Shown here piece after piece: positions 27,650-64,000 of a stretch of 64,000 nucleotides of DNA. The notes below the pieces were generated by a model. The model had not been told where the DNA came from and did no database searches. It was given only the letters and a program-made list of their open reading frames with translations. The translations under genes were made by a program, and so were the position numbers. Positions within the stretch are counted from its first letter, which is position 1; every line of letters begins with the position of its first letter. Origin of the DNA: Bacteroidota bacterium (GTDB lineage: Bacteria; Bacteroidota; Bacteroidia; Chitinophagales; BACL12); contig JADKAC010000002.1 in the NCBI GenBank assembly GCA_016715425.1, positions 377,351 to 441,350 on the forward strand. The letters run 5' to 3'.

Positions 27650-27698
27650 TATATTTTCTTCTGTTCTGTTTGCGATAAATAAATTGATGATTTTTTGA

Positions 27699-28604
27699 TC
27701 AGAAATATCCTTGTTTTTTTCTGTCTTCCATAGATGTTTCGGAACGTTTGTCGTCCGAGCGATTTCCTCTTTCAGTAATACGTGTTGTAGCTACTTCGTA
27801 AATAATTTTTTCTACCGTATCTGCATCACTTGCAACTGCGCCTGTAATAGGAAGATCACCACAAGTACGGAAACGCACCTGACGAACTTCAGGCTTTTCA
27901 TTGCCACGCAATTTCACCCATTTTGGATGGGTAGATATATATGTTCCATCACGTTCAATTACTTCCCGCATATGAGAAAAATATAATGTAGGTAATGGAA
28001 TATTTTCCTGAAGAATATATTGCCATACATCCATCTCAGTCCAGTTACTGATTGGGAATACACGGAAGTGTTCACCAAGATGTTTTTTCCCGTTGAAGAT
28101 GTTCCATAATTCCGGACGTTGATTTTTTGGATCCCATTGACCGAACTCATCACGATGACTGAAGAATCTTTCTTTGGCTCTGGCTTTTTCTTCATCTCTT
28201 CTTGCGCCACCCATACATGCATCAAACTTGTTGTTCTCTATTGTTTCCAAAAGAGTTACCGTTTGCAAAGCATTACGGGAAGCATTTATTCCTTGCTCTT
28301 CCACAGCGGTACCTTTAGAAATAGAATCTTCTACCTCGCCAACGATTAATCGGGCACCGGTTTCTTTCACCAACCAATCACGGTATTCAATTGTCTCCGG
28401 AAAATTATGACCCGTATCAATATGAACTAATGGAAATGGAATTTTCGCAGGCCAAAAAGCCTTACGTGCCAGATAAACCATCAGGATAGAATCTTTTCCA
28501 CCCGAGAATAATAAGGCAGGGTTCTGAAATTGTGCCGCCACTTCCCGCATAATAAAAATGCTCTCGGCTTCCAGTTCTTTTAAATGTGTTAAACTATAAG
28601 ACAT
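27699..28604 (-). CDS. cysD: sulfate adenylyltransferase subunit 2
   Basis: PAPS-reductase-fold PP-loop FSGGKDS. CysD-length 301 aa. Immediately upstream of cysN. Confidence 0.93.
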   Translation of the reverse strand: MSYSLTHLKELEAESIFIMREVAAQFQNPALLFSGGKDSILMVYLARKAFWPAKIPFPLVHIDTGHNFPETIEYRDWLVKETGARLIVGEVEDSISKGTAVEEQGINASRNALQTVTLLETIENNKFDACMGGARRDEEKARAKERFFSHRDEFGQWDPKNQRPELWNIFNGKKHLGEHFRVFPISNWTEMDVWQYILQENIPLPTLYFSHMREVIERDGTYISTHPKWVKLRGNEKPEVRQVRFRTCGDLPITGAVASDADTVEKIIYEVATTRITERGNRSDDKRSETSMEDRKKQGYF

Positions 28605-28610
28605 GATATT

Positions 28611-29222
28611 TTAAACTTGATATTTAATAATAGGTAATATAAAATTGTATAATTGATCTACGCTTTCTTCAATACTTAATTTATCGGTGGGGATTTCCAT
28701 TGCAGGATTCTCAGGTGCTTCAAAGGGAGAAGTGATACCGGTAAAATCAGGAATTTCGCCACGTCTTGCTTTTGCATATAATCCTTTCACATCTCTTGCT
28801 TCACATACTTCTAACGGCGCATTGATATATATTTCTAAAAAATTCTCTTCGCCAATTATTTGCTTTGCCATGGTGCGAATTTCATTTGTAGGACTTACAA
28901 AACTGTTCATGGTAATGATACCGCAATTCAGAAATAATTTGCTGACTTCTGCAATCCGGCGGATATTTTCAATACGGTCTGCATCACTGAAACTTAAATT
29001 TTTATTTATTCCACTGCGAATATTATCGCCATCCAATAACATGGTGAGAAAACTATCAGTATGTAGTTTCTTTTCGAGCGCTTCTGCAATTGTGCTTTTT
29101 CCGGAGCCTGATAAACCCGTTAGCCATAGCACACGGGCATTCTGTTTCAGAAAGGCCTCTTTATCGGCCCGCTGCAATAAGCGGTGGAATATTGGGTGAA
29201 TGTTATCCTGCACTGTAGTCAT
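28611..29222 (-). CDS. cysC: adenylylsulfate (APS) kinase
   Basis: P-loop GLSGSGKSTIA and the LDGDNIR motif. Start set at ATG 29222 because a TAACTTTG box lies inside the longer ORF extension. Confidence 0.92.
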   Translation of the reverse strand: MTTVQDNIHPIFHRLLQRADKEAFLKQNARVLWLTGLSGSGKSTIAEALEKKLHTDSFLTMLLDGDNIRSGINKNLSFSDADRIENIRRIAEVSKLFLNCGIITMNSFVSPTNEIRTMAKQIIGEENFLEIYINAPLEVCEARDVKGLYAKARRGEIPDFTGITSPFEAPENPAMEIPTDKLSIEESVDQLYNFILPIIKYQV

Positions 29223-29251
29223 TTTCTGCAATCTCAGGCCAAACGGCGGCG

Positions 29252-29259
29252 CAAAGTTA
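29252..29259 (-). promoter_or_regulatory. candidate -7 box (TAACTTTG) for the cysCDN operon
   Basis: Exact TAnnTTTG on the minus strand, 29 nt upstream of the ATG at 29222. Confidence 0.45.
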
Positions 29260-29337
29260 GGCAATTACAATGGTTTTAAGGATGAATGATTTAGAAAAAT
29301 GGTTGTCTGATTGATGTGATTAATGTGCGGATGTGCA

Positions 29338-47841: not shown

Positions 47842-49185
47842 ATGTCCACAATAAAAGGATTTTCCAAATTAAATAAAACTGAAAAAATAACTTGGCTCGC
47901 CAAGCATTTTCTCACCAGCAATCCATTGGATATTGCAAGGGAATTTTCCAGCTATATGCATGCAAATACAGAATTGCAAAAAGTGTTTGACGGTATTAGT
48001 GAAAACACTCTTACTAATTTTTATTTACCCTATGGTATAGCTCCCAACTTTGTAATCAATGGGATGAGTTATGCAGTACCAATGGTGATTGAGGAAAGTT
48101 CTGTTGTTGCTGCGGCATCTAGTGCAGCTAAATTTTGGAGCGACAGAGGCGGGTTTCATGCAGAAGTTATTTCTACAACTAAAGTTGGTCATGTACATTT
48201 TTTATGGCGTGGTGATGCAGAAAAACTGATGCAGTTTTATTCTGAAATAGAACCTATTCTTAAGGCAGAAGTATTACCCCTTACAAAAAATATGGAAGCT
48301 CGTGGAGGTGGATTGCGAAGTTTAGAATTAGTGGACTGCAGTCATATTGAACCGGATTATTATCAATTAAAGGCAACTTTCGAAACTGCGGATGCAATGG
48401 GTGCCAATTTTATCAATTCTATTCTTGAGCAATTTGCGCAATGTCTTACTGAAGAAATTGCGGTATATAAATATTTCACCGGTGCAGAAAAAAAGGTGGA
48501 GATAGTAATGAGCATTCTGAGCAATTACACTCCGGATTGTCTTGTAAAAGTTTGGGTAGAATGTGATGTAAAAGATCTTGGCGAATTTCCTGAAGCAAAT
48601 TTGGATGCAATGCAGTTTGCAAAGAAATTCAGAACAGCCGTTAACATTGCCTGCAATGATGTATATCGTGCAACAACACATAACAAAGGAATTTTTAATG
48701 GTATTGATGCAGTGATATTAGCCACCGGAAATGATTTCCGTGCTATTGAAGCATGTGGTCATGCTTATGCCGGTCGCAGCGGCACATATTCAAGTTTAAG
48801 CAATTGCACAATTGAAAACGGGAAATTTAAATTCTGGTTAGAAATGCCATTGGCGGTTGGTACTATCGGTGGGCTAACCCGTCTGCATCCTTTAGCAAAA
48901 AGATCATTAGAAATATTGGGAAATCCAGGTGCAAAGGAATTAATGAAAATAATTACCAGTGTAGGATTAGCGCAAAACTTTGCTGCAATAAAAGCATTGG
49001 TAACTTCCGGCATTCAAAAAGGACACATGAAAATGCATCTCACTAATATGTTGAGTCATTTTGGTGCCTCAGAAACCGAGATAGAAAAAGCACTTGCATA
49101 TTTTGCAGATAAAACAATTTCCTTCCATAATGTGCGGGATTTCTTAAACAGCTACAGAAAACAGAACTTAGCACCTGAGAATTAA
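47842..49185 (+). CDS. mvaA: class II hydroxymethylglutaryl-CoA reductase
   Basis: EESSVVAAAS, DAMGANFINS, and the GTIGG / flap-domain His region (KGHMKMHL). Confidence 0.9.
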   Translation: MSTIKGFSKLNKTEKITWLAKHFLTSNPLDIAREFSSYMHANTELQKVFDGISENTLTNFYLPYGIAPNFVINGMSYAVPMVIEESSVVAAASSAAKFWSDRGGFHAEVISTTKVGHVHFLWRGDAEKLMQFYSEIEPILKAEVLPLTKNMEARGGGLRSLELVDCSHIEPDYYQLKATFETADAMGANFINSILEQFAQCLTEEIAVYKYFTGAEKKVEIVMSILSNYTPDCLVKVWVECDVKDLGEFPEANLDAMQFAKKFRTAVNIACNDVYRATTHNKGIFNGIDAVILATGNDFRAIEACGHAYAGRSGTYSSLSNCTIENGKFKFWLEMPLAVGTIGGLTRLHPLAKRSLEILGNPGAKELMKIITSVGLAQNFAAIKALVTSGIQKGHMKMHLTNMLSHFGASETEIEKALAYFADKTISFHNVRDFLNSYRKQNLAPEN

Positions 49186-49190
49186 TTACG

Positions 49191-50102
49191 GTGCAATCAT
49201 TTTCAGCAAACGGCAAATTACTTTTATCAGGTGAATACCTTGTTTTGCAAGGTGCACTTGCATTGGCAACTCCATGCAAGTTTGGGCAAGATTTGAAAAT
49301 TGAAAAAACAAATACATCCTCATTGATTTGGCAAAGTCTAAAACAAGATGGTAGCATTTGGATACAAGAAGAATTCAGCAAAACAATATTGCTATCCAAA
49401 ATAAAATCTGAGGATAGTATACTAATGCAAACTCTTAAATATGCACTTTCAGCGAACCCTGATTTTATACAAGAATTGCTGAATAAAAAAGTTACTACTC
49501 AATTACAATTTCCATCGGATTGGGGTTTGGGAAGCAGTTCCACATTAATATATCTTATTGCAAAGTGGAGTAATACAAATGCGATTGATATAAATACAAA
49601 AGTTACAGGAGGTTCAGGTTATGATATTGCATGTGCTGAATCACATCGCCCTATTTTATTTCGTAAAGATGAAGAAGGTGCAGTTTGGGATATGGTAAAT
49701 TTTAATCCGCCCGCACAGGAACAATTATTTTTTATTCATCTGAATAAAAAAAGCAACTCGAAAGAAGCAGTGAAAAAATTTATTGCTGAGAAAAAAGAGT
49801 TTAAAGAAGAAGTAGAAACCATTTCTGAAATTTCTGAAGCATTATTATTTTGCGATGTGTTTGAAGATTTTATAGTGTTGTTGCAAGAACATGAAGAGGT
49901 AATGCAATATGTTTTACAAGAAGAAAAAATGCAGTCAACAATGTTTGCAGATTTTCCGGGAGTGGTAAAATCGTTGGGAGCATGGGGTGGCGATTTTATT
50001 TTAGCTGCAGCGAATATTGCGCCGACAGAAATAAGAAGTTATTTTCACAAAAAAGGATTTGATACAATTTTGAGTTATAACGAAATGGTATTGTTCACAT
50101 GA
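49191..50102 (+). CDS. GYDIA-motif GHMP-family kinase (mevalonate-pathway kinase, step unassigned)
   Basis: GKLLLSGEYLVLQGA N-terminus, GLGSSST motif II and the literal GSGYDIACAE motif. GTG start. ATGA overlap with the decarboxylase gene. Confidence 0.8.
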   Translation: MQSFSANGKLLLSGEYLVLQGALALATPCKFGQDLKIEKTNTSSLIWQSLKQDGSIWIQEEFSKTILLSKIKSEDSILMQTLKYALSANPDFIQELLNKKVTTQLQFPSDWGLGSSSTLIYLIAKWSNTNAIDINTKVTGGSGYDIACAESHRPILFRKDEEGAVWDMVNFNPPAQEQLFFIHLNKKSNSKEAVKKFIAEKKEFKEEVETISEISEALLFCDVFEDFIVLLQEHEEVMQYVLQEEKMQSTMFADFPGVVKSLGAWGGDFILAAANIAPTEIRSYFHKKGFDTILSYNEMVLFT

Positions 50103-51142
50103 TGCAAGTAACATGGCGTAGCCCATCAAATATCGCTTTAATAAAATACTGGGGAAAGCATGGCAATCAGTTGCCGAATAATGCATCCTTATCACTTACA
50201 TTGCATGAAGCATATACTCAAACCAGTGTGGAATTATTGCCAAAGAAAAAAGAAACCTCTTTGGAAATAGACTTTAAGTTTGAGGGAAAAAGAAATGCAG
50301 CATTTGCAAAAAAAATAAATACTTATCTCAGCAAGCTCGCAAATGATTTTCCGTGGTTAAAGAATTATAAAATAAAAATTATAACTGAAAATTCATTTCC
50401 GCATTCAGCAGGTATAGCTTCCAGCGCATCTTCAATGTCGGCACTTGCCTTATGCATTTGTTCGTTGGATTTATTTCAAGAAGAAAGAACTATTCAGGTA
50501 AAGAAATTTTATGAGCAAGCCTCGCATTATGCACGCATCGGATCGGGCAGTGCATCTCGCAGTGTAATAGGCGAATTTTCGGTGTGGGGAAACTCGGCAC
50601 TTGTTAAAAAAGCAAATGATTTATATGCAATAAAACATCCTATAAAATTTCATACAGCGTTTAATGAAATTCAAGATACAATACTCATTGTAAATAACGA
50701 AGCAAAAAGTGTTACAAGCAGCGCAGGTCACGCACTGATGCAAGACCATCCTTCTGCCGCTTTGCGATATAATAATGCAGCGTTAAGAATGAAACGTATT
50801 TTGCAAGCATTGCAAAAAGGAAATTGGAATGTATTCGGAAAAGTTATTGAAGAAGAAGCATTGGAATTACATGCATTAATGATGACGTCCGATCCTTCAT
50901 ATATTTTAATGCAGCCCGGCACATTAAGTATTATTGAAAAGATCAGAAAATTTAGAGAAAAAACTCAGCTACCTGTGTATTTTACTTTAGATGCCGGACC
51001 TAATGTACATGTGTTATATCCATACTATGAAAAAAAAGCAGTGCGCAATTTTATCCAATCTGAACTATTAAAATTCTGTTCAACACCATCACCAATTTAT
51101 GATTACATGGGCAACGGGCCAATACAGGTTATTGAAGAATAA
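50099..51142 (+). CDS. mvaD: diphosphomevalonate decarboxylase
   Basis: SNIALIKYWGK, AGIASSASS and FTLDAGPNVHV blocks. Confidence 0.9.
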   Translation: MMQVTWRSPSNIALIKYWGKHGNQLPNNASLSLTLHEAYTQTSVELLPKKKETSLEIDFKFEGKRNAAFAKKINTYLSKLANDFPWLKNYKIKIITENSFPHSAGIASSASSMSALALCICSLDLFQEERTIQVKKFYEQASHYARIGSGSASRSVIGEFSVWGNSALVKKANDLYAIKHPIKFHTAFNEIQDTILIVNNEAKSVTSSAGHALMQDHPSAALRYNNAALRMKRILQALQKGNWNVFGKVIEEEALELHALMMTSDPSYILMQPGTLSIIEKIRKFREKTQLPVYFTLDAGPNVHVLYPYYEKKAVRNFIQSELLKFCSTPSPIYDYMGNGPIQVIEE

Positions 51143-51972
51143 TGCGTAAAAAATATCCTTCTAAAATATTATTATTTGGAGAATATGCTATCCTATTAAA
51201 GGGTGAAGCATTGGCTGTTCCCTATCCAAAATTTACTGCATACTGGGTGGAGAAAACAGAATCAGATTCCGCATTTAAACCTTACTTACTACAATATGCA
51301 GATTATCTTTTTTCAGAAAATTATTTTCTGGAAATAATTGATGTTACTGCATTTAAAAATGCACTTGAATCCGGATTGGATATTAAATCAAATATTCCGA
51401 TTGGTTATGGTGCGGGTAGTTCAGGTGCTTTGGTGGCTGCTGTGTACGAGAGGTTTGCAAAAGCTCCAATTGATAAAAATGATTTTCTTGCATTGAAAAA
51501 TGTATTAGGTCGCATGGAAGATTTTTTTCATAGCAAAAGTTCTGGTTTTGATCCGCTGGTTTGTTATTTAAATAAACCATTACATATACATGCAGATGGT
51601 AGTATTCATAGTATTGAGAAAGAAATTCCATTGCTGGAACACATGCAATTATTTAATACTGCAATCAATCGTTTTACAAATCAATTGGTGGAAACTTTTC
51701 AGGAACGTATGAAAGATGAAGATTATCGCACTGAAATTTTTGAAACTCTTTTACAACTCAATAGCGATTGTATATCATATTTGTTATCGGATAACAGAAA
51801 CATGTTTTTTGAAACATTGCGCAAACTATCTGAATTTCAATTGAAGTATTTCAATTTTGCAATTCCACCAATCATACAGGGAATTTGGAAAAATAAACTC
51901 ACACACGATACTTTAATTATGAAATTATGCGGAGCCGGTGGTGGTGGATTTATGATTGAATTTAAAGAGTAA
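51142..51972 (+). CDS. GHMP-family kinase (mevalonate or phosphomevalonate kinase)
   Basis: SKILLFGEYAILLKG, IGYGAGSSGA and CGAGGGGF motifs. TAATG overlap with mvaD. Confidence 0.8.
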   Translation: MRKKYPSKILLFGEYAILLKGEALAVPYPKFTAYWVEKTESDSAFKPYLLQYADYLFSENYFLEIIDVTAFKNALESGLDIKSNIPIGYGAGSSGALVAAVYERFAKAPIDKNDFLALKNVLGRMEDFFHSKSSGFDPLVCYLNKPLHIHADGSIHSIEKEIPLLEHMQLFNTAINRFTNQLVETFQERMKDEDYRTEIFETLLQLNSDCISYLLSDNRNMFFETLRKLSEFQLKYFNFAIPPIIQGIWKNKLTHDTLIMKLCGAGGGGFMIEFKE

Positions 51973-52998
51973 TTATCTCACTTGCATTTCCATATAAATA
52001 GGAAAATGGTCGCTGTAACCACCATGATACATTTCGCCGCTATAAGTTCGGTTTGGTAGGTAGCCGTATTTTTTATTGTTATATAATTGAAAATCATTTT
52101 TTACAATCTGCGCACTTTTGGTTTGTACATAAGGTTTTGCATTTTGTAATAATACCTCGGAAACAATAAATTGATCGAGCACCTGCCAGCCACCATCATA
52201 AAAGTAACTGCCTTCATTTGCCTGTTCTATATCCGTCATCAGATTTACTAAACATTCATCACAATAATTACTTCTCAATTTATTCGTCTGCAATACTTCC
52301 GTTATACTTTCATCCGAAGGTGTATCATTAAAATCTCCCATAATGATAATAGCGGGATCTGTAAGTTTTGCATTCAAAGAATCAATAGTATTCTTCAAAG
52401 TATTTGCAGCAATAGCTCTTCGCATTTTTGTTTCTACACTTCCTCCAGAACGTGATGGCCAATGATTTACAAAAATGTATATATCCTTTTTTGTTTGCTT
52501 CAACTTCACCTGTACAAATAATATATCACGTGTAGCGCCACCATTATTATCCGGCAGCCTTACATAAATAGGTTTTGAATCAATAATTGTGATAATATCC
52601 TTTTTATAAAGTAATGCAACATCAATTCCCCGTTCATCGGGTGAGTCGAAATGTACAATTGCATAACCGGCATTTTTAATTGCATTCTGCTTGATAAGAT
52701 CTTCCAGCACATTTTTATTTTCTACTTCAGCCAATCCTACAATGGATGGCGAACCCATAGAAGCAATTACAAGTGCAAGATGATTTAATTTAGTTTGATA
52801 GCGTTCTGTATTCCATTCCTTCTTTGAGTCGGGAGTAAATTCTTCATCAATAGTATTTGGTGAATTAATGGTGTCGAATAAATTTTCGACATTGTAAAAC
52901 ATAACTCCGATAGATTCTTTTTGACCTGCGCAGGAAACGCCGCATAACAACATAATGCAAACAGCAAAAACAGAAATTGTATTTATGCGAATTTTCAA
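51973..52998 (-). CDS. endonuclease/exonuclease/phosphatase family lipoprotein
   Basis: TTG start gives lipoprotein signal [26 protein letters not shown] blocks [24 protein letters not shown] and [10 protein letters not shown]. Confidence 0.85.
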
Positions 52999-54254
52999 AT
53001 GTCCAATAATAATTTAATTGGATCAGCACCAAATATTAATTGCTCCGGATTTTCAAGTTGTTCTTTCACTCGCACTAAAAAACTCACTGAATTTTTTCCA
53101 TCGATAATGCGATGATCATAACTTAATGCGAGATACATCATCGGACGAATTACTACTTGACCATTTATAGCAACAGGACGTTCCTGAATTTTATGCATTC
53201 CAAGTATTGCACTTTGCGGTGCATTAATAATTGGTGTACTCATCATAGAACCAAAAACACCACCATTGGTAATTGTAAAAGTACCGCCCTGCATTTCTTC
53301 TAAGGTTAGAGTGCCATCTCTGCCTTTTACAGCAAGATCTTTTATTGTCAATTCCACTTCTGCCATACTTTTACTTTCTGCATTGCGAATAACAGGTACC
53401 ACTAATCCTTTCGGTGTGGAAACAGCTATGGAGATATCACAATATGCATGATGCAATATTTGGTCTTCATTCCAATAGGCATTTACCATTGGAAATTCGA
53501 GCAGTGCATTACAACATGCTTTTACAAAAAAGCTCATGAAGCCAAGACCAATTCCATGTTGCTTTTCGAATGCGGATTTATATTTTTCCCGTATAGCCAT
53601 CACTGCACTCATGTCCGCTTCATTAAATGTAGTAAGAATTGCAGCTTCATTTTTCACACTCACTAATCTGCTTGCAATTGTTTTGCGCAGTCTGCTTACT
53701 TTTTCAGTATGCTCATCACGGCTATTGCGTTTCATGGATTGTGCAATTTCTTTCGGATGCATTCCATTATTTAATGCTTGTAACACATCTTCTTTTGTAA
53801 TTCTTCCACCGATTCCTGTGCCAATAAGATTAGCAATATCTACTTTATTTTCTTTGGCAATTGTTTCTGCAAGAGGTGTAATATGCACAGCAGGTTTCTC
53901 CGCAGTTTTCTCAATTGCTTTTTCAATAGTTGCCGGTTTTTTTTCTGGTTGAATTGCTTCTTGTTTGGAAGAAGTTTTTTCCAGTTTCGTAACTTCTTGT
54001 TTTTTTGCAGGAGCTTTTGCAGAGGTATCTAAAGTTGCTATCACTGCTCCAATTTTCAATTCACTTCCTTCTTCTGCCTTAATTGTTATTACTCCAGATT
54101 TTTCCGCAGGAAATTCTAATGTAGCCTTATCACTATCAAATTCACAAAGGGATTGATCTGTTTCTACATAATCTCCATCTTTCACTAACCATTTGCTCAA
54201 TGTTACTTCGTTAATAGATTCTCCTATTGTAGGTACTTTCAATTCTATTGCCAT
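52995..54254 (-). CDS. sucB: 2-oxoglutarate dehydrogenase E2 (dihydrolipoyllysine succinyltransferase)
   Basis: Lipoyl motif [11 protein letters not shown]3-binding linker region, catalytic SYDHRIIDG. Confidence 0.93.
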
Positions 54255-54310
54255 GCGTTGTAAATTATATAACCTGAATGATTGTATTTTTAAAATTAAA
54301 GAAAAGTATA

Positions 54311-57022
54311 TTATGCAAATGCAGATTTTATAAGTTCTTGTTGTTCTTGTTTATGCACTTTTGAAAATCCGGTTGCAGGGGATGCCGATGGTTTTCGTGC
54401 AATAGATTTAATTCCATTACCACACATCCTATTTAAAATATAATACCAGGCACCCATATTTAATGGTTCTTCTTGCACCCAAAATAATTCATCCTGCTTA
54501 TATTTTTTAAAAACAGTTGTTAATTGATGTTCCGGAAAAGGATACAATTGCTCCAAACGAATAATTGCAATATCCTTAATTTTATTTTTTTGCTGATACT
54601 CCAATAAATCATAAAATACTTTTCCGCTACATAATAAAACACGTTTCACTTTTTTTGCATCTACATAATTATCGTCCATCACTTCATGAAATTTCCCTTC
54701 GCTTAATTCGCTCACATCACTTTGAACTAAGGGATGACGCAATAAAGATTTAGGACTCATCACAACCAATGGTCTTCTGAAATCCCATTCCATTTGACGA
54801 CGTAAAACGTGAAAGAAATTTGCAGGTGTAGTGCAATTCACAACTATGATATTAAGCTCTGCGCATGAAGATAAAAATCTTTCGAGACGTGCGCTGCTGT
54901 GTTCCGGCCCTTGTCCTTCATAGCCATGTGGTAATAATAAAACAATGCCACTCATACGCTGCCATTTACTAAATGAAGCAGAGATGAATTGATCAATAAT
55001 TGTTTGAGCCCCATTTGCAAAATCACCAAACTGAGCCTCCCAAACAACTAATGTTTGAGGGTTTGCAAGAGAATAACCAAATTCAAAACCTAACACTGCA
55101 AATTCACTCAGCAATGAATTATAGATATAAAATTTACCTTGGTCTTTATCAATATATTCCAAGCGATAAATTTCTTCATCCGTATTTACATCACGTATTG
55201 CTGCATGCCGGTGACTGAATGTTCCACGCTTTACATCTTGCCCACTGATGCGTACAGAATTTTTATCAAGCAGCAAAGAACCGTAGGCTGCAAGTTCTGC
55301 AATTGCCCAATCCACTTTTCCGGATTTTAATAATTCCTGATTTGATTCAAATAATTTTTTAATCTTAGGTAAGGGTTCAAATCCTTCAGGAAGAAAATAA
55401 ATATTTTCTAATACTTGTTTCAAATGCTTCTTACCGATTCCAGTTTCAGGAGATGATTCAAAATCCTTCTTTGTAATATCCTTGCGCAATTGCCTCCATG
55501 CTTCTTCCGGTGCCTGAAGAATATAAGGCAATGGTTTTTCTTTTACTAAATCCAATCTTGCCTGCAAATCATTCCAGAATTCTTTTTCAATTCTTTCTGC
55601 AATAGCAGTATCAAAATCTTCTGACTCTATTAATTTTTTAATATAAATTTCTCTTGGGTTTGGATGGTTGCCAATCAACTTATATAAATGTGGTTGCGTG
55701 TATTTAGGATCATCGCCTTCATTGTGTCCATACTTACGATAGCATACCATATCTACAAAAAAATCTTTATGAAATTTCTGGCGATATTCTACTGCTATTT
55801 CCACAGCAAATACCACGGCATCCGGATCATCACCATTCACATGAATTACTGGAGCTTCAATGGTAGTGGCAATGGAAGTACAATAATTACTGGAACGTGC
55901 ATCCACAAAATCTGTAGTAAACCCAATTTGATTATTAATTACAAAATGAATTGTACCCCCGGTGCGATATCCTCTCAGCTTACTCATTTGTAATACTTCA
56001 TACACTACACCTTGCCCTGCAACAGCTGCATCACCATGAATAGTTACAGGAACAATCTGATCCCAATTTTTTTCATATAACACATCTGCTTTTGCTCTTA
56101 CAAATCCTTGCATAACAGGATTTACTGCTTCCAGATGAGATGGGTTTGGCGAAAGTTTTAAATGTACTTTTTTACCGCTATCGGTAGTTACCTGACTGGA
56201 ATATCCAAGATGATATTTCACATCGCCATCACCCATTGTAAGATCAGGAACTACGTTACCTTCAAATTCATTAAAAATATGTTCGTAGGTTTTTCCCATG
56301 ATGTTTGCAAGCATATTTAAACGACCACGATGCGCCATGCAAAACACAAATTCTTCTACACCTAATTCAGCACCTTTTTGAATGATTGCATCCAGTGCCG
56401 GAATGGTAGTTTCACCACCTTCTAAACCAAACCGTTTTTGACCTACATATTTTTTTTCTAAAAACTGTTCTAATACTGTTGTTTGATTTAGCTTGCGCAG
56501 AATGCGTTTGCGCTTTTCTGTGGAGAGTTGAATATTTCTTCCTTCCTGTTCAATTTTTTGCAACAGCCATTGTCTTTCTTCAGGATCCAATACATAATCA
56601 AATTCATAACCGAGAGTGCCGCAATATATTTTATGAAGCATTGCAATAATCTCTCGCAATGTTGCATGTTCTAAACCGATAAATTTAGAAGCATAAAATT
56701 TTTTATCGAGGTCAGATTCTGAAAATCCGAGTTGCTCTAATTTTAATTGTGCATTTCTGTCTTTACGTGGTCGTATAGGATTTGTATCAGCAATCAAATG
56801 TCCTTTTTCACGATACGCTAAAATCAGATTATACACTTTAAATTCATCGGCACTTATGCTTTGACCATTGCCATTAGAAGAAAAATTAGCTTGTGCAAAG
56901 TCAAATCCTTCAAAAAATTTGGCCCATTCCGGGTCCACCTCAAGTGGATTATTCTGGTAATTCTCATATAATTGTTCCAGGTAACCCGACTCCGCATTGC
57001 TGATATAGGAAAATTTATCCAT
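54311..57022 (-). CDS. sucA: 2-oxoglutarate dehydrogenase E1 component
   Basis: 903 aa. ThDP-binding region ([21 protein letters not shown]) and SucA-type N-terminus. Confidence 0.93.
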
Positions 57023-57229
57023 TTCGATTGAATTTCAGAAAATAAAACAGATTTAATTATGGTAAGTTTTTGGACTGCAAATATCGGGAGATTTTCATGG
57101 TTATCCTTGTTTTATTGGAGAATAACTGCTTTGCATGATGTAATCATAAATTATAAGTGAATTACTTAATGCAAAATTTCTATTTTCGCTAAACGAACCG
57201 TAGATATAATACAACTGTTAGAACGCAAT

Positions 57230-57931
57230 ATGCAATTTAAAAATAGCTCGTCCACAGCAATTTTATTTTTTTCCCGCAGTGCAGAAGAGGAAGCACGGGT
57301 AAAACATTTTATTGCAGGCGATACCGCTGCATCTCAGCAAGTGGCAAATTGCATGATAAATCATTCCTTAGCAATAATCAGAAAAACAGGATTGCCGTAT
57401 TATATTATTAATTCCGAATATCAAAAAGGTGAAAATTTTGGTGAACGTTATTCAAATGCATTTGCAGATATTTTTAATTTGGGTTTTCAAAAAATTATTT
57501 CAATTGGCAACGATTGTGCATCATTGTCGCATAATGATATTATAAATGCATCTGCACAATTAAATAACTATGATTTTGTAACCGGCCCTGATCAAAAAGG
57601 TGGTTTATATTTAATAGCAATGCATCGCAAAGATTTTAATAAAAAACGCTTTGCATTATTGCCATGGGGAACAGGGAATCTTGCTGAAGTAATTACTCGA
57701 TTTTGCAATCTAAATGGTTTATCATTATTTAAAACGACCATTAAAAGAGATATTCATACAAGAGGAGATTTAGCCTTACTATTAAATTCTCAAACGTTTT
57801 TATTCCGCCTAAAACAATTAGCAGGAAATTTACTTAACAGGTATCAAAATGCAATTTTTAAAAATGGCATTCATTTTATTTCTGCATTACTACCCACTTC
57901 TATTTCTCTGAAGTCTCCACCTGCATTATAA
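57230..57931 (+). CDS. divergent DUF2064-like (GT-A-like) protein, first member of the organoarsenical locus
   Basis: Shares the central IGNDC....GPDQKGGLYLIAM block with the paralog at 59472 (IGADCY....GPAKDGGYYLIGM). Lacks the N-terminal KGKVKTRL motif. Confidence 0.7.
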   Translation: MQFKNSSSTAILFFSRSAEEEARVKHFIAGDTAASQQVANCMINHSLAIIRKTGLPYYIINSEYQKGENFGERYSNAFADIFNLGFQKIISIGNDCASLSHNDIINASAQLNNYDFVTGPDQKGGLYLIAMHRKDFNKKRFALLPWGTGNLAEVITRFCNLNGLSLFKTTIKRDIHTRGDLALLLNSQTFLFRLKQLAGNLLNRYQNAIFKNGIHFISALLPTSISLKSPPAL

Positions 57932-58020
57932 TACTTGCAACTTACTGAATTACCCAACAGCAATTACAATAATTGCTGAAATCATTTTTATACAATCACT
58001 TAAATATTAAAACTCCAATT

Positions 58021-58359
58021 ATGGAAAGAGAAAATTATTATCACGCAAAAGACTTAAAAAAATTCGGAAATATCTCAGATTGGGATAAAGAATTAGGAAA
58101 AGCATTTTTCGATTATTATGGAAAAGTATTTGAAGAAGGCGCACTCACCCAACGTGAAAAATCATTAATTGCTTTAGCAGTTGCACACGCTATTCAATGT
58201 CCGTATTGCATTGATGCTTATACAGTGGATAGTTTAGAAAAAGGTGTTGATGAAGAACAAATGATGGAAGCGGTGCATGTTGCCGCTGCAATCCGAGGAG
58301 GCGCATCTTTAGTGCACAGCACACAAATGATGAATCGCTTTAAAGAAGTAACAATGTAG
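58021..58359 (+). CDS. AhpD/carboxymuconolactone decarboxylase-like protein (arsenosugar-associated peroxidase-like family)
   Basis: 112 aa from ATG 58021. AhpD-like core REKSLIALAVAHAIQCPYCIDAY with a CxxC motif. Confidence 0.8.
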   Translation: MERENYYHAKDLKKFGNISDWDKELGKAFFDYYGKVFEEGALTQREKSLIALAVAHAIQCPYCIDAYTVDSLEKGVDEEQMMEAVHVAAAIRGGASLVHSTQMMNRFKEVTM

Positions 58360-58416
58360 GTAAATGAATTACAGACGTATTAAAATTTTCTTTTTTTATT
58401 AAAAATTTCATATCGC

Positions 58417-59475
58417 ATGTCTATACAAAAATCATTGCATAAACAACATCATAAGCTTGCAGATAATGCATATCAATTAAAAGTGCTGGATACACATGAA
58501 GTACTTACCATTGATCTCCCAAAATTTGAAAGCAAACTAAAAGAGCATCAGATATTTCCATTGACACCTGTAAGAACAGAAATTTTTCAAGTGAATGTTG
58601 GATACATGTGCAATCAAACCTGTGCGCATTGCCATGTAGATGCAGGTCCTGATCGCAAGGAAATTATGACACGAGAAACAATGCAGCAATGTATAGATGT
58701 GTTGGCTGCAACGGATATTCCCACAGTTGATTTAACTGGTGGTGCTCCAGAAATGAATCCTGATTTCAGATGGTTTGTTGAAGAAATTTCTAAGCTTAAC
58801 AGGAAAATTTTAGTGCGATGTAATCTCACAATTATTCTTGCAAATAAAAAATATCATGATCTGCCGGAATTTTTTAAACTGCACAAAGTTGAAGTGATTT
58901 CATCCTTACCTTATTACAATAAATCAAGAACGGATAGCCAACGTGGTGATGGTGTTTTTGAAGCGAGTATTCAGGCATTACAAATGTTGAATAACATAGG
59001 TTATGGCAAACCGGATTCTGATTTAATATTAAACTTAGTGTATAATCCGGGCGGTGCATTTTTACCCGGTTCACAATTAATGTTAGAACAACAATTTAAA
59101 AAAGAGCTGAAGAAAAATTTTGATATAGAGTTTAATAGTTTGTTTTGTATGACCAATTTGCCTATTAGTAGATATTTAGATTATCTGATTGAATCGGGCA
59201 ACTATGAATCTTATATGGAAAAATTAGTGAATGCATTTAATCCCGGTGCTGCATTAAATGTAATGTGTCGCAATACAATTTCTGTTGGTTGGGAAGGAAC
59301 AATTTACGATTGTGATTTTAATCAAATGTTAGGTCTTAAAGTAGATGCAAATGCTCCTCAGCACATTAATGAATTTGATATTGAAAAGTTAAAGAATCGT
59401 CAAATCGTTTTTAATCAACATTGTTATGGATGCACTGCAGGTGCAGGTTCCAGTTGTGGAGGAGCCGTTGCATGA
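58417..59475 (+). CDS. arsS: radical SAM / Cys-rich domain protein, ArsS-type
   Basis: Cluster motif CNQTCAHC (58609-58632) and Cys-rich C-terminal tail CYGCTAGAGSSCGG (within 59422-59472). Flanked by DUF2064, AhpD-like and arsM genes. Confidence 0.85.
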   Translation: MSIQKSLHKQHHKLADNAYQLKVLDTHEVLTIDLPKFESKLKEHQIFPLTPVRTEIFQVNVGYMCNQTCAHCHVDAGPDRKEIMTRETMQQCIDVLAATDIPTVDLTGGAPEMNPDFRWFVEEISKLNRKILVRCNLTIILANKKYHDLPEFFKLHKVEVISSLPYYNKSRTDSQRGDGVFEASIQALQMLNNIGYGKPDSDLILNLVYNPGGAFLPGSQLMLEQQFKKELKKNFDIEFNSLFCMTNLPISRYLDYLIESGNYESYMEKLVNAFNPGAALNVMCRNTISVGWEGTIYDCDFNQMLGLKVDANAPQHINEFDIEKLKNRQIVFNQHCYGCTAGAGSSCGGAVA

Positions 59476-60083
59476 CACATAAGAATGCATTGATTATTAT
59501 GATAAAAAATCCGGTGAAAGGGAAAGTAAAAACCCGTTTAACTAAAGACATCGGAGAGGAACAAGCATTGTTTGTTTACAATAAATTATTGCAGCATACT
59601 TGTAAAGTTGCTTCAGAGATTCAGGTTGATCGTTTTGTTTTTTACAGTGATATAATTGATAGAAAGGATCAGTTTATTAATGATGGATTTAAAAAATATG
59701 TGCAGTGTGATGGCGATTTAGGTGTGCGCATGGAATACGCATTTTCAATTCCATTTAAAAATGAATATCATAAAGTTGTAATGATAGGTGCAGATTGTTA
59801 TGATCTCACATCATTACAAATTCAAAATGCGTTTGATGCATTAGACAACAATGATTTTGTAATCGGGCCTGCAAAAGATGGTGGCTATTATCTGATCGGT
59901 ATGAAAAAATGGAACCGTTGGATTTTTAGAGACAAACCATGGAGTACAGAAAAACTTTTAGCAGAAACAAGAAATGCTATTCAGGAAAATAACGGAAAGC
60001 TATTTTTGTTAGATCCTCTCACCGATATTGATACAATTACTGAATTAAATAACTACCCGGAACTAACAAAACCTACCTCATAA
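59472..60083 (+). CDS. DUF2064 family protein (arsenosugar-associated glycosyltransferase-like family)
   Basis: ALIIMIKNPVKGKVKTRL N-terminus and GPAKDGGYYLIGM. ATGA overlap with the arsS stop. Confidence 0.85.
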   Translation: MTHKNALIIMIKNPVKGKVKTRLTKDIGEEQALFVYNKLLQHTCKVASEIQVDRFVFYSDIIDRKDQFINDGFKKYVQCDGDLGVRMEYAFSIPFKNEYHKVVMIGADCYDLTSLQIQNAFDALDNNDFVIGPAKDGGYYLIGMKKWNRWIFRDKPWSTEKLLAETRNAIQENNGKLFLLDPLTDIDTITELNNYPELTKPTS

Positions 60084-60089
60084 TTATAT

Positions 60090-61169
60090 ATGGAAATTCT
60101 TCTAATTATTAGTGCACTATTTCTCGCATATTCAAATGGTGCAAATGATAATTTCAAAGGAGTTTCCACATTGTTTGGAAGTGGTACAAGTAATTTTATT
60201 ATTTCAATTGGCTGGGGCACTATCAGTACTTTACTCGGAAGCATATTTGCAATTTATTTAGCACATGGTCTTATGCAGAATTTTTCTGGCAAGGGATTAA
60301 TTCCTGATGAATCGTTAAAGGACCCCGCTATTGCCACTGCCGTAGCTCTTGGTGCAGCAGTAACTGTTTTCTTTGCAACAAAAATTGGTCTTCCAATTTC
60401 AACAACTCATGCCATAGTTGGTGCTTTGGTAGGTGCAGGTTTTATGGCCGTTGGCAACGCATTAAATTTAAGTCAACTTACATATACTTTTTTACTTCCG
60501 CTATTAGTAAGTCCTTTTATTGCTTGTTTTGCGAGTATATTTCTCTATTTATTATTTCGCCGATTGCGTTTGTTTTTGAAGATTGATAAAGACACACATT
60601 TTATTGCCAATCCACCAATAAAAAATGTAAATCAATTTATGGCTCCTGGAGTTTCTGTTCAACAAATTGAAGTAGAAAAATACACCGGCGATATAGTCGG
60701 TATTTCTGCACAAAAATTATTAGATGCATTTCATTTTATTTCAGCAGGTGCTGTAGGTTTTGCCCGAGGCATGAATGATGCACCAAAAATTGCAGGTTTA
60801 CTATTGCTAATTCATTTTTTTAGTGTACCATTAATTATTGTACTCGTTGCTGTTGCTATGGCAATTGGAGGTTTATTACATGCAAAGAAAGTAGCTATTA
60901 CTATGAGTAAGAAAATTACAAGTATGAATGCTGGTCAGGGCTTTACATCAAACTTAGTTACAGCAGTTTTAGTTTGGACAGCAAGTATTAGTGGGATGCC
61001 TGTTTCAACAACTCATGTATCTGTAGGTGGAATTTTTGGAATAGGCATATCAAATAAAAAAGTGGATTATAAAATGGTTGGTAAGATAATAGGTTCATGG
61101 GTAATTACATTACCATTAGCCGCAATTCTTTCTGCTATAATTTATTTATGCATTCAATTTATCTTTTAA
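60090..61169 (+). CDS. PiT (PHO4) family inorganic phosphate/arsenate-type transporter
   Basis: Duplicated signature GANDNFKG (N-half) and GMNDAPKI (C-half). About 10 TM segments. Starts 6 nt after the DUF2064 gene. Confidence 0.85.
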   Translation: MEILLIISALFLAYSNGANDNFKGVSTLFGSGTSNFIISIGWGTISTLLGSIFAIYLAHGLMQNFSGKGLIPDESLKDPAIATAVALGAAVTVFFATKIGLPISTTHAIVGALVGAGFMAVGNALNLSQLTYTFLLPLLVSPFIACFASIFLYLLFRRLRLFLKIDKDTHFIANPPIKNVNQFMAPGVSVQQIEVEKYTGDIVGISAQKLLDAFHFISAGAVGFARGMNDAPKIAGLLLLIHFFSVPLIIVLVAVAMAIGGLLHAKKVAITMSKKITSMNAGQGFTSNLVTAVLVWTASISGMPVSTTHVSVGGIFGIGISNKKVDYKMVGKIIGSWVITLPLAAILSAIIYLCIQFIF

Positions 61170-61204
61170 TCAATTTAAAATACTTTTATTTAAATACATT
61201 CAAA

Positions 61205-62179
61205 ATGTCAACAACATATTTAGAAACCACAAGAAATGTTTACAAAGAAGCAGCCGAAAATCCACAGAAAGGATTGTGTTGCACAACAACACCAGTATGG
61301 CAATTGCCGGAATTAGTGATTCCTCAAAAAATGCTCGAAATGAATTATGGATGTGGCAGCACGGTAAATCCAAGAGATTTAATAAATAATCCAACAATCA
61401 TGTATGTAGGTGTTGGAGGCGGAATGGAGTTACTACAATTTGCTTATTTCAATCGCAAAAATGGTGGCGTGATAGGAATAGATGTAGTAGAAGAAATGCT
61501 TTCTGTTTGCGATGAAAATTTAATTGAAGCAGAAAAACTCAATCCATGGTTTAAACGTGAATTTGTTGAATTGCGAAAAGGAGATGCATTTAAATTACCC
61601 GTTGTAGAAAATTCAATAGATATCGCAGCACAAAATTGTTTGTTCAATATTTTTACTGATATGGATTTAAATAAAGCGTTGGGAGAAATGTACCGAGTAT
61701 TAAAAAAACATGGCAGATTAGTAATGAGTGATCCAATCTGTGAGCAGTCAATACCAAATAATTTGCGTGACGATGAAAAACTAAGGGCCTTATGTTTAAG
61801 TGGTTCTTTGCCATTGAATGAATATATTAATCGAATCACATCTATTGGATTTGGAACAATTGAAGTGCGAGCTAAAAGACCTTATCGCATTCTTGATCCT
61901 GGCCATTATAATACACCTGAATTAATTTATATTGAGAGTGCAGAAATTTGCGCTATAAAAGATCCAATGCTAAATGACGGCCCCTGTGTTTTTACAGGTA
62001 AAACAGCAATTTATTTTGGTGATGCAGATTATTTTGACGACAAGAAAGGACACATCTTAATGCCAAATCAACCATTATCTATTTGTGATAAAACTGCCTT
62101 GCAATTTCAAACTTTGGATCGAAAAGATATTTTCATTTCAGAATCTACATGGTTCTATGACGGTGGTGGTGGTTGTTAA
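61205..62179 (+). CDS. arsM: SAM-dependent methyltransferase, ArsM-type arsenite methyltransferase
   Basis: N-terminal GLCC pair, YGCGS, SAM motif I VGVGGGMEL, further Cys residues (CLSGS, GPC) and a C-terminal GGGGC. Start at ATG 61205. Confidence 0.8.
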   Translation: MSTTYLETTRNVYKEAAENPQKGLCCTTTPVWQLPELVIPQKMLEMNYGCGSTVNPRDLINNPTIMYVGVGGGMELLQFAYFNRKNGGVIGIDVVEEMLSVCDENLIEAEKLNPWFKREFVELRKGDAFKLPVVENSIDIAAQNCLFNIFTDMDLNKALGEMYRVLKKHGRLVMSDPICEQSIPNNLRDDEKLRALCLSGSLPLNEYINRITSIGFGTIEVRAKRPYRILDPGHYNTPELIYIESAEICAIKDPMLNDGPCVFTGKTAIYFGDADYFDDKKGHILMPNQPLSICDKTALQFQTLDRKDIFISESTWFYDGGGGC

Positions 62180-62232
62180 TATTTACCAATTTGAATTGCA
62201 CATCTTAACTTCGGCCTTCAATTAATTATGCA

Positions 62233-63345
62233 TTGAATAAAGGAGTATTTACTTATCGAAATATTTTAAGTGCTATTGGCATTGCTTTCGGCATCTGGTT
62301 TATTTGGAATTTTTATGTCATCATCAGTTATTTTTTAATGGCTGCGGTGGTTTCACTTTTGGGAAAGCGCATTGTAAGACTATTAGATAAAATACATTTT
62401 GGAAAATATAAATTACCAAGATGGCTTTCTGCTTTATTTGCATTGGCAGTTATTATTGCAGGTATCGTTGGAATACAAATGCTTTTTATACCACTTATTA
62501 TTGAACAGGCGCAAGTAATTGGAAGTATAGACACACAAGAAGTTGCTGCCGGTTTAGGTCCCTGGTTTCATCAACTTGAAGATTTTATTTTGCAATTTCA
62601 AAATAATCCTGACACCACTTATACCTCCTTAATAGATATGTTGTCTGCACAACTTAATGCTTGGATAACCATGACTTCAGTATCAAATATTTTTAGCAAC
62701 ATCTTAGTAAGTCTGGGAAGTATTATTACGGCAATATTCTCTGTCGCCTTTATATCTTTTTTCTTTTTGAGTGATGATAAATTATTTTCTAAGATTCTAA
62801 TCGGTATTACACCCACTCGTTTTGAAGAAAAAGCAATTCGCATAATGAACCGCAGCGAAAAAACATTAACCCGTTATTTTACAGGACTTATTATACAATC
62901 CACAATAGTTTTTATATTAATTATTATAGGATTTTCGATTGCCGGATATAAATACGCAATGCTTATAGCCTTCTTTTGTGCTATTGTAAATATCATTCCT
63001 TATCTGGGTCCGATTATAGGAACCCTGTTTGCTTTGCTTGTCACCACCACCAGTCAATTTGCGACGAATCCAGATGCCAATTTGGGGGGTATAATTGTTA
63101 CAATTGTGGCAATTTGCCAAGGTGTTCAATTGATTGATAATTATATTTCTCAACCATTAATTTTTTCAAATAGTCTAAATACACACCCTCTGGAAATATT
63201 TACCATCGTACTTATTTTCGGATCCATGGCAGGTATCATTGGGATGATAATAGCAGTGCCTGCTTACATTTTCATACGAATTATTGCCCGTGAATTTTTC
63301 AGCGAAATTAAAATTGTTAAGAATTTAACACAGGGCATGGAATAA
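62233..63345 (+). CDS. AI-2E family (PerM-like) transporter
   Basis: 8 TM segments. NIIPYLGPIIG motif typical of AI-2E/UPF0118. TTG start. Confidence 0.85.
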   Translation: MNKGVFTYRNILSAIGIAFGIWFIWNFYVIISYFLMAAVVSLLGKRIVRLLDKIHFGKYKLPRWLSALFALAVIIAGIVGIQMLFIPLIIEQAQVIGSIDTQEVAAGLGPWFHQLEDFILQFQNNPDTTYTSLIDMLSAQLNAWITMTSVSNIFSNILVSLGSIITAIFSVAFISFFFLSDDKLFSKILIGITPTRFEEKAIRIMNRSEKTLTRYFTGLIIQSTIVFILIIIGFSIAGYKYAMLIAFFCAIVNIIPYLGPIIGTLFALLVTTTSQFATNPDANLGGIIVTIVAICQGVQLIDNYISQPLIFSNSLNTHPLEIFTIVLIFGSMAGIIGMIIAVPAYIFIRIIAREFFSEIKIVKNLTQGME

Positions 63346-63362
63346 ATGTGAATAAGAAAAAA

Positions 63363-63390
63363 TACATTTGCACGGCTGCAAATATATTTG
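63363..63390 (+). promoter_or_regulatory. two tandem candidate -7 boxes (TACATTTG at 63363-63370, TATATTTG at 63383-63390)
   Basis: Both exact TAnnTTTG, 20 bp apart, about 120-140 nt upstream of the ATG at 63513. Confidence 0.35.
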
Positions 63391-63512
63391 CCGCCTTCTC
63401 CTCGTCACACCACACAAATTTAAGAGAGTACCCAAATTAAGTAAGACTATAGTTTTACAAAACCTTATTGGACACACGCACAATATTGCTTAACCCTAAA
63501 TATTGATTAATT

Positions 63513-64000
63513 ATGTCTAGCCAGTTTTTTGTAAAATGCGCAATGTATCTATGTAGTTTTTTAATTATAACCAACATTGCAGCTCAATCATCAGAAATTA
63601 TTAAACCTGTTGCTCGGGAAATTTCCGAAAGCAAACTCAAAAAAGATTTCAGTAAAATAGAAATCTTTAATCCATTTACTCCTTCCACCGAACGAGTAAT
63701 GCAAACCGATGCATTTGCAACTAATATCACCTTCACTACTGTGGATGCAGGTGTTCTTGAATCATTATATAATGAAAAGAAAGATGCAATATCATTGTCA
63801 ATACCTTATAGAGATGAAGTATTGGAATTAGAGCTTATACAAGTGCATATATTGTCTTCGGGATTTAAAGTAACAAGTGCCTTAGGTGGTGACGAAGCTT
63901 ATAACCCGGGAATTTATTATAGAGGGATAATAAAAGATGATCCCAATTCTATAGTAGCAATTAGTATTTTCCAAAATGAAATTTTTGGAGTTGCCTCTTC
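63513..64000 (+). CDS. hypothetical secreted protein, N-terminal part only (runs off the window)
   Basis: ATG at 63513. Signal peptide ...LIITNIAAQS. Open frame to the window end. Possibly the propeptide region of a secreted metalloprotease, but not supportable from this fragment. Confidence 0.6.
   Translation, partial: MSSQFFVKCAMYLCSFLIITNIAAQSSEIIKPVAREISESKLKKDFSKIEIFNPFTPSTERVMQTDAFATNITFTTVDAGVLESLYNEKKDAISLSIPYRDEVLELELIQVHILSSGFKVTSALGGDEAYNPGIYYRGIIKDDPNSIVAISIFQNEIFGVAS

Follow-up and report, generated by a model that had tools for sequence, protein, structure and literature searches.

Seven consecutive genes at positions 57230–63345 of a 64,000-nucleotide stretch of assembly GCA_016715425.1 (Bacteroidota bacterium, contig JADKAC010000002.1, positions 377,351 to 441,350 of the forward strand; hereafter the window, from whose first letter coordinates are counted) probably form one operon that makes an adenosyl-derived organoarsenical, and the block appears to be a compact, lineage-specific variant of an ArsS system that is widespread in Bacteroidota. 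The operon reading is favoured because four of the encoded proteins pass curated family cut-offs, the gene junctions are tight, the gene order is kept in relatives, and the core is more conserved than the housekeeping gene sucA. The gene set is less novel than an earlier description of this DNA (the sequence-only reading) implied, since NCBI models already name it; the identification of the core is correct and already public through these annotation models. The value of the locus lies in the compactness of the block, a dedicated clade of PiT permeases, a DUF2064 paralogue of a second subfamily (B) and a testable pathway obtained by comparison of related loci.

The open reading frames (ORFs) of the block are tightly packed and all lie on the plus strand. 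The first, g1 (57230–57931; 233 amino acids, aa), encodes the DUF2064 subfamily B paralogue, a protein with a nucleotidyltransferase-like fold, and is followed by g2 (58021–58359; 112 aa), encoding an AhpD-like CxxC protein, whose ATG lies within a TTG-initiated ORF beginning at 57973. The third gene, g3 (58417–59475; 352 aa), encodes ArsS, an enzyme of the radical S-adenosylmethionine (SAM) type with a Cys-rich DUF3641 tail, and overlaps in an ATGA with g4 (59472–60083; 203 aa), the gene of a canonical DUF2064/TIGR04282 protein. Downstream of these are a PiT/PHO4 permease (g5, 60090–61169; 359 aa), the arsenosugar-type As(III) SAM methyltransferase ArsM (g6, 61205–62179; 324 aa) and, as the final gene of the block, an AI-2E family permease (g7, 62233–63345; 370 aa). 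The intergenic junctions from g1 to g7 measure 89, 57, −4, 6, 35 and 53 nt. The sequence-only reading had described seven same-strand ORFs with junctions from −4 to about 90 nt, and all were recovered, together with every motif that it quoted: QCPYC, CNQTCAHC, CYGCTAGAGSSCGG, KGKVKTRL, GPAKDGGYYLIGM and, in the methyltransferase, a CC pair, YGCGS and VGVGGG.

ArsS, ArsM and the AhpD-like partner

Families were assigned by means of NCBIfam curated cut-offs and Pfam. The g3 product matches the ArsS model TIGR04167 over the entire profile length with 453.7 bits (cut-off 300), and its DUF3641 domain (PF12345) scores 187 bits. The CX3CX2C radical SAM motif, CNQTCAHC, is located at C65/C69/C72, and residues C284, C299, C336, C339 and C347 of the tail are invariant among 19 sequences. 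An identical protein carries the NCBI name "arsenosugar biosynthesis radical SAM (seleno)protein ArsS"; no solved-structure relative of g3 was detectable by sequence. Likewise, g6 scores 540.1 bits against the model NF038099 AsSugarArsM (cut-off 400); the family searches took its start as 61202, a single codon early, which has no effect on the result. When g6 is compared with CmArsM (4FR0), the Cys residues of YGCGS, AQNCLFN and ALCLSG are aligned with those of YGCGS, SNCVCN and ECLGG, and g6 additionally has an N-terminal CC pair. The AhpD-like protein g2, with its QCPYC motif and its gene 57 nt upstream of g3, reaches 185.3 bits against TIGR04169 (cut-off 120). Together with g4, described below, the profile searches thus bear out the earlier ArsM, ArsS, AhpD-like and DUF2064 assignments above curated cut-offs.

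In Synechocystis, ArsM and ArsS carry out the first arsenosugar-forming steps (PMC8552651), and ArsS converts trivalent dimethylarsenic, DMAs(III), to 5'-deoxy-5'-dimethylarsinoyl-adenosine (DDMAA) in vitro in a redox-neutral radical reaction (PMC13598754); PMC12159101 also credits the adenosylation to Cheng et al. 2021. The corresponding adenosylation of DMAs(III) to DDMAA is predicted for g3, and production of dimethylarsenic and DDMAA by the window's host is well supported by homology. The literature searched, in which the TIGR accessions received incidental mentions only, describes no function for either DUF2064 or the AhpD-like partner, and none for the later arsenosugar steps. This agrees with the earlier statement that the majority of the seven genes are without demonstrated biochemistry.

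The pathway of Synechocystis sp. PCC 6803, for which PMC8552651, PMC12159101 and PMC13598754 cite Xue et al. (2019) and Cheng et al. (2021), employs the same two enzyme families. Its counterpart in the window differs in that the host is a non-photosynthetic member of the Chitinophagales, and in that the operon adds the AhpD-like protein, two DUF2064 proteins, a PiT and an AI-2E permease. The arsinothricin cluster arsQML of Burkholderia gladioli (PMC8552651) also combines a radical SAM enzyme, an ArsM and a permease in an organoarsenical biosynthetic cluster; however, its ArsL transfers a 3-amino-3-carboxypropyl rather than an adenosyl group, and the permease families differ. A cluster of the arsinothricin type was rejected for the window, with 89.9 bits for g6 against NF040538 (cut-off 500) and 68.7 against a cut-off of 240 for NF040539.

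The arsenic names might have been transferred by homology to an ArsS-type system that in fact acts on antimony, selenium or a nucleophile derived from a phosphorus or sulfur oxyanion. The family models were originally set by neighbourhood and selenoprotein content (rSAM_SeCys, perox_w_seleSAM), the characterised enzymes are those of Synechocystis only, and the weak best match of the PiT permease is a sulfate-permease model, with sulfate-activation genes present elsewhere in the window. Nevertheless, we regard a substrate other than arsenic as very improbable: both g3 and g6 far exceed curated cut-offs that were built around characterised enzymes, the As(III)-binding thiol triad of CmArsM is conserved in g6, and there is no positive evidence for an alternative substrate.

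Gene content and conservation of ArsS loci

The gene content of other ArsS loci was examined for comparison. Species-representative genomes were searched by alignment, and of the stretches matched, at least 600 in number, the best 80 loci were kept; nearly all of these are from Bacteroidota, with 60–70% ArsS identity to the window. They were examined by tblastn and de novo ORF clustering, and cluster representatives were annotated with NCBIfam. In the full-context set, the 47 loci where ArsS has 7 kb or more on either side, an AhpD-like gene is linked to ArsS, and lies immediately upstream of it, in 46. DUF2064 is linked in 33, ArsM and a TIGR04283 glycosyltransferase in 19 each, and a purine nucleoside phosphorylase in 18, every one of which also has DUF2064. 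A DUF547-like gene occurs in 17 of the 47, the rhodanese NF045521 in 16 and a fatty-acid-hydroxylase-like gene in 11; Pyr_redox_2 (4/47), the NapH-like ferredoxin (2/47) and PiT (1/47) are less frequent, and nine loci hold the bare AhpD-like/ArsS pair with nothing else. The invariant unit in Bacteroidota is the AhpD-like/ArsS pair, and the locus in the window is unusual in composition.

The fullest operons, typical of Flavobacteriaceae, have the order AhpD-like, ArsS, rhodanese, DUF2064, phosphorylase, ArsM, hydroxylase, DUF547, TIGR04283, and sometimes end with Pyr_redox_2 and NapH-like genes. Such nine-gene operons are found among loci L003–L082 (e.g. L076, 9599–16700), where the rhodanese is of lipoprotein type and the hydroxylase-like protein is a membrane protein. 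The locus in the window shares with them the AhpD-like/ArsS core, DUF2064 and ArsM, and has the Pyr_redox_2/NapH-like pair a few kb downstream. It differs in that the phosphorylase, TIGR04283, rhodanese, DUF547 and hydroxylase genes are absent within about 10 kb, and in that the subfamily B paralogue, PiT and AI-2E are added.

The complete g1–g7 order is repeated in L090, a metagenome contig, and in three assemblies (L170–L172); the genes upstream of the block in these relatives differ from those of the window. As the order recurs in divergent relatives, the seven-gene arrangement is not a matter of chance. Identity between the relatives and the window is highest for ArsM (82–85%), followed by the AhpD-like protein (76–83%), ArsS (76–78%), PiT (69–73%) and the canonical DUF2064 protein g4 (62–66%), and is lower for AI-2E (45–52%) and for g1 (34–38%), the fastest-evolving member of the block. 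For comparison, the housekeeping protein SucA is 68–69% identical and the protease encoded downstream of the block 48–53%. The core genes are strongly constrained, and g1 and g7 are fast-evolving. The synteny expected for the seven families was accordingly found as gene order in four relatives, but not across Bacteroidota, where the AhpD-like/ArsS pair is kept in 46 of 47 loci, PiT in one, and AI-2E in none outside a single lineage.

The PiT permease

The g5 product scores 212 bits against PF01384 (PHO4) but passes no NCBIfam model, remaining far under the cut-offs for PitA (72 vs 800 bits) and CysP (81.5 vs 400). It aligns to the Thermotoga PiT TmPiT (6L85), and both the GAND-like and the P-x-STTH repeats are intact. 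PiT-family carriers import phosphate, with one branch carrying sulfate, and arsenate is a known phosphate mimic (PitA).

Metagenomes were scanned for the relatives nearest to g5, and the flanks of the best 80 loci (46–71% identity) were searched for genes of the system. An ArsS-system gene stands beside PiT in 20 of the 23 loci with flanks of at least 3 kb on both sides and in all 14 with flanks of at least 5 kb on both sides, and ArsM is typically immediately upstream of PiT on the same strand. The PiT clade to which g5 belongs is almost confined to ArsS/ArsM loci, though most ArsS loci lack PiT. We consider this restriction the most useful new result of the analysis; nothing in the literature searched addresses a PiT inside arsenosugar or arsM clusters.

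PiTs with 48–50% identity to g5 have as partners a distant ArsS (42–55%) and a different ArsM-like methyltransferase (25–30%). Since the distant PiTs pair with a much more divergent ArsS, the PiT–ArsS association spans lineages. In L125–L128, L145, L149 and L152, the distant ArsS (42–55%) is flanked by the PiT clade and by an ArsM-like methyltransferase 25–30% identical to g6, which suggests a second, uncharacterised branch of the ArsS system in other phyla.

The AI-2E permease and possible bystander genes

The last gene of the block is a PF01594 member (157 bits) whose best NCBIfam match, the CxpE efflux model, stays far under its cut-off. Homologues of g7 comprise a clade at 44–93% identity, beyond which identity drops sharply to 41% or less. 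Three clade members (46–52% identity) as well as the L090 protein (45%) terminate the same seven-gene block, and a 37% outgroup is unlinked. That g7 exports the product of the pathway is a reasonable guess, no more. The two transporters that the sequence-only reading regarded as built into the locus thus fared differently, with the relatives of PiT overwhelmingly in ArsS/ArsM loci and AI-2E linked in one lineage only.

These data bear on the question of how many of the seven genes act together. If the neighbourhood were simply inherited within one lineage, only g2 and g3 (plus g4 and g6) would cooperate, and PiT, AI-2E and g1 would be bystanders. The single-lineage linkage of AI-2E, the equal synteny of an unrelated protease tagged for the type IX secretion system (T9SS), and the fast evolution of g1 and g7 (34–52% identity) are all in keeping with this explanation. 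Conversely, the linkage of PiT recurs independently in distant lineages, and the block is intact while the upstream neighbourhood varies. The g1 subfamily, moreover, is represented in 12 of the 81 loci, in each case immediately next to the AhpD-like/ArsS pair; the 11 loci besides that of the window come from different families. That PiT, AI-2E and g1 are bystanders is quite improbable, and a cooperating seven-gene operon remains the preferred reading.

Two DUF2064 proteins with a nucleotidyltransferase-like fold

The canonical protein g4 matches TIGR04282 over its full length (199.4 bits, cut-off 134) and is related to PDB entry 3CGX (E=1e-20). It carries the N-terminal KGKVKTRL motif, matches CofC profiles weakly and is a putative CofC-like nucleotidyltransferase. 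Public calls for its start differ, with 59472 giving 203 aa and 59499 giving 194 aa. The former is preferred because the 203-aa form is aligned to the family profile from its residue 7 onwards, the shorter call would drop the first beta-strand, and the gene is coupled to g3 through the ATGA.

The sequence-only reading had called g1 a divergent DUF2064-like protein, and indeed it passes Pfam DUF2064 (65 bits) but stays under the TIGR04282 cut-off of 134, with 79.3 bits over profile positions 70–189 only (the C-terminal two-thirds). By its sequence, g1 belongs to a sister subfamily of TIGR04282. In contrast to canonical members, this subfamily is without GK-x-KTRL, in place of which S-x-x-x-E-x-x-x-K is found, and without an insert of about 16 residues; it retains four motifs (G-x-x-FGER, G-N-D, GP-x-x-DGG-x-YL-x-G and DID), and its C-terminus is lengthened by about 45 residues, with an invariant PP at the end. 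A word-indexed homologue search returned only four relatives of g1, owing to fast evolution, and exhaustive HMMER was used instead. Against a representative library the exhaustive search revealed a large family, with 95 cluster representatives at E<1e-30 and full-length matches of 225–240 aa. The AlphaFold 2 model built from four sequences was unusable (predicted local distance difference test, pLDDT, of 55) and was replaced by one from 45 sequences, with a pLDDT of 90.

The folds nearest to the g1 model are 3CGX, an uncharacterised DUF2064 protein, and the CofC/FbiD and 3-phosphoglycerate guanylyltransferases, followed by MobA-like proteins, KdsB and GlmU. From the model, the DUF2064 family looks like nucleotidyltransferases that activate phosphorylated substrates, and not like Leloir glycosyltransferases as the curated name implies. 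CofC/FbiD and the 3-phospho-D-glycerate guanylyltransferases (2I5E, 6BWH, 7P97) are the nearest characterised folds, and the N-terminal Lys/Arg nucleotide-binding motif of g4 is comparable to theirs, although the CofC profile hits are weak. Sequence identity is just 11–14%, however, and g1 is without the motif. The sole DUF2064 structure, 3CGX, is a structural genomics product, and no substrate is assigned to any DUF2064 protein.

The DUF2064 fold, and the finding that every linked phosphorylase is accompanied by DUF2064 (18/18), led us to propose a route from DDMAA onwards. In full operons, the gene content suggests that DDMAA could be phosphorolysed to arsenoribose-1-phosphate, which DUF2064 would activate to a nucleotide sugar for transfer by TIGR04283. 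At the locus in the window, the phosphorylase and the transferase of this route would have to be encoded elsewhere or substituted. What follows DDMAA in arsenosugar formation has been an open question ever since the pathway was put forward, with only ArsM and ArsS characterised. The present locus and its relatives yield a list of candidates for these later steps: a phosphorylase always found with DUF2064, a nucleotidyltransferase-like DUF2064 protein, a near-obligatory AhpD-like partner and the PiT clade.

Genes downstream of the block

Gene-content negatives refer to the called genes of the window and about 10 kb downstream, in a genome of roughly 3.8 Mb. Within this range, no phosphorylase, TIGR04283, rhodanese, DUF547 or hydroxylase gene was found. 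A T9SS-tagged Reprolysin-like protease starts at 63513, 167 nt after g7, and extends beyond the window end. Past the protease are genes for a Pyr_redox_2 flavoprotein (444 aa) and a NapH-like membrane ferredoxin (464 aa; L086, 13912–16651). This pair recurs beside ArsS in several lineages, including a Verrucomicrobiota metagenome-assembled genome (MAG; L039), and one relative has a DUF547 gene just ahead of it. The pair may supply electrons to the AhpD-like protein or to ArsS. The limits of 57230–63345 given earlier therefore describe the seven genes correctly, but the system probably extends beyond 63345 and the window end, broken by the protease gene.

Farther downstream (L086, 16725–20228) lie genes for a 229-aa GT2 protein, a processive-type GT2 protein of 497 aa and a GT87/MptB-like membrane protein, a set that is conserved in the relative L170. 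The 229-aa GT2 was considered as the missing TIGR04283 enzyme and rejected, since it reaches only 37.5 bits where the cut-off is 182; its resemblance is to polyprenyl-phosphate glycosyltransferases.

Proposed pathway, and biosynthesis versus detoxification

The preferred reading can be formulated as the following route. PiT would import an oxyanion feedstock, for which arsenate is favoured and phosphate is the alternative, and arsenate would be reduced by a function encoded outside the locus. ArsM would methylate As(III) twice to DMAs(III), and ArsS would move the 5'-deoxyadenosyl group of SAM onto the arsenic to give DDMAA. The AhpD-like CxxC protein may serve as a thiol-disulfide reductant, holding dimethylarsenic in the trivalent state or recycling the enzymes, and is possibly fed by the Pyr_redox_2/NapH-like pair. 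Canonical DUF2064 (g4) would activate a phosphorylated intermediate with a nucleoside triphosphate; in the fuller operons this intermediate would be arsenoribose-1-phosphate, formed by the nucleoside phosphorylase encoded there, and TIGR04283 would receive the product of the activation. The paralogue g1, which is without the GK-x-KTRL motif, may be a partner or an enzyme of altered specificity, and the AI-2E permease may export the product. The assignments of ArsM and ArsS draw on membership of characterised families, and those of the other steps on fold, motifs and neighbourhood.

Several points weigh against this reading. The phosphorylase and TIGR04283 genes that would complete an arsenosugar route were not found within about 10 kb, there is no arsenate reductase within the window, and the literature searched reports no organoarsenical from the window's host or from any Bacteroidota carrier. 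The roles given to the AhpD-like and DUF2064 proteins are proposals, and the substrate specificity of PiT is unreadable from its sequence. Lastly, the linkage of AI-2E is no stronger than that of the neighbouring, surely unrelated T9SS protease; because the latter is just as syntenic, we take the AI-2E linkage as lineage-level synteny and as weak functional evidence. The claim that the locus makes a complex organoarsenical consequently holds in part: the ArsM/ArsS operon is well founded, whereas an arsenosugar end product at the window locus is uncertain. It is less certain than for the fuller operons because the usual later-step genes were not found nearby.

The same enzymes might chiefly serve detoxification, with arsenic that has leaked into the cell by way of phosphate carriers methylated, adenosylated to a less reactive pentavalent form and expelled by AI-2E. 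As a corollary, PiT would be a phosphate-selective carrier that guards the phosphate supply under arsenate stress. ArsM-type methylation is widely regarded as detoxification (PMC12159101), the last gene encodes a permease of an efflux-associated family (with CxpE as best model, far under its cut-off), and the sugar-elaboration genes, phosphorylase and TIGR04283, were not found nearby. Yet a dedicated importer of the phosphate/arsenate family within the operon is unexpected for pure detoxification, and two DUF2064 proteins together with a strongly conserved AhpD-like partner imply processing past DDMAA. Moreover, detoxification overlaps the biosynthetic reading rather than excluding it, as the same enzymes would act either way. 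We consider a chiefly detoxifying role rather unlikely.

Classical ars operons (arsRBC, acr3, arsA/D) likewise have arsenic as their subject but differ from the present locus in that none of their families is found in the window, and an importer-type carrier is present instead of ArsB/Acr3. The Pfam families of ArsR, ArsC, ArsB, Acr3, ArsA and ArsD are missing among the called genes of the window, as had been noted earlier for the first four, and also from the roughly 10 kb downstream. A stretch of 64 kb out of a genome of about 3.8 Mb is too little to carry the accompanying conclusion, that the locus is biosynthetic rather than a detoxification operon.

A further elaboration of the biosynthetic reading takes the PiT clade as a dedicated arsenate importer and the DUF2064 pair as the source of a nucleotide-activated arsenical. 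This would be used by glycosyltransferases, possibly those of the downstream polyprenyl-phosphate-type cluster, for a lipid or envelope glycoconjugate instead of classical algal arsenosugars. In this specific form, the proposal is distinctly unlikely. If PiT does import arsenate, the use of arsenic by common sludge, soil and sea heterotrophs would look like a deliberate metabolism and not detoxification alone, with consequences for how arsenic cycles and for where the organoarsenicals of food webs originate. At its size, the seven-gene block lends itself to heterologous expression.

Genomic setting and other genes in the window

The window DNA matches the Chitinophagales MAG GCA_049289115.1 (contig JBAQIZ010000139.1), and proteins identical to those of the window are found in several further assemblies, one of them with a 3.78 Mb contig (JADJTS010000001.1 of GCA_016711065.1, a near-complete genome from the same species). 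The host MAG (Chitinophagales, Bacteroidota, from sludge) encodes T9SS-tagged proteins, in agreement with the Bacteroidota host named by the sequence-only reading. The GC content of about 34% is flat over the whole window and hence gives no hint of a recently acquired island.

On the opposite strand upstream of g1, and divergent from it, are sucB and sucA (52995–57022, minus strand), encoding the E2 and E1 components of 2-oxoglutarate dehydrogenase. In mycobacteria a lipoylated E2 protein serves as the reductant of AhpD, and the adjacency of sucA/sucB to a locus with an AhpD-like gene is suggestive; still, it is probably a coincidence, since the relatives L170–L172 have intervening genes.

Within the 89-nt gap between g1 and g2 is a hairpin with a 9-bp stem and a 3-nt loop (57958–57978; CAGCAATTACAATAATTGCTG), with a T-rich stretch after it. 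The hairpin might act in attenuation or as a partial terminator, splitting g1 from the remaining block. An Rfam scan of 56900–63700 revealed no riboswitch and no leader RNA. Counts in a sigma-70 promoter and terminator scan did not exceed the shuffle expectation, the model being one that does not cover Bacteroidota promoters.

Elsewhere in the window, the sulfate-activation cluster at 26351–29264 (minus strand) comprises an APS kinase, a CysD-like protein of the PAPS_reduct family and a CysN-like GTPase, and adjoins a GH92 mannosidase and a ROK kinase. The gene at 22368–26249 (minus strand) encodes a protein of 1293 aa that has both TPR repeats and a CHAT (caspase-like) domain. Mevalonate genes stand in a row at 47842–51972, encoding HMG-CoA reductase, an unannotated 303-aa protein, a diphosphomevalonate decarboxylase-like protein and a GHMP kinase.

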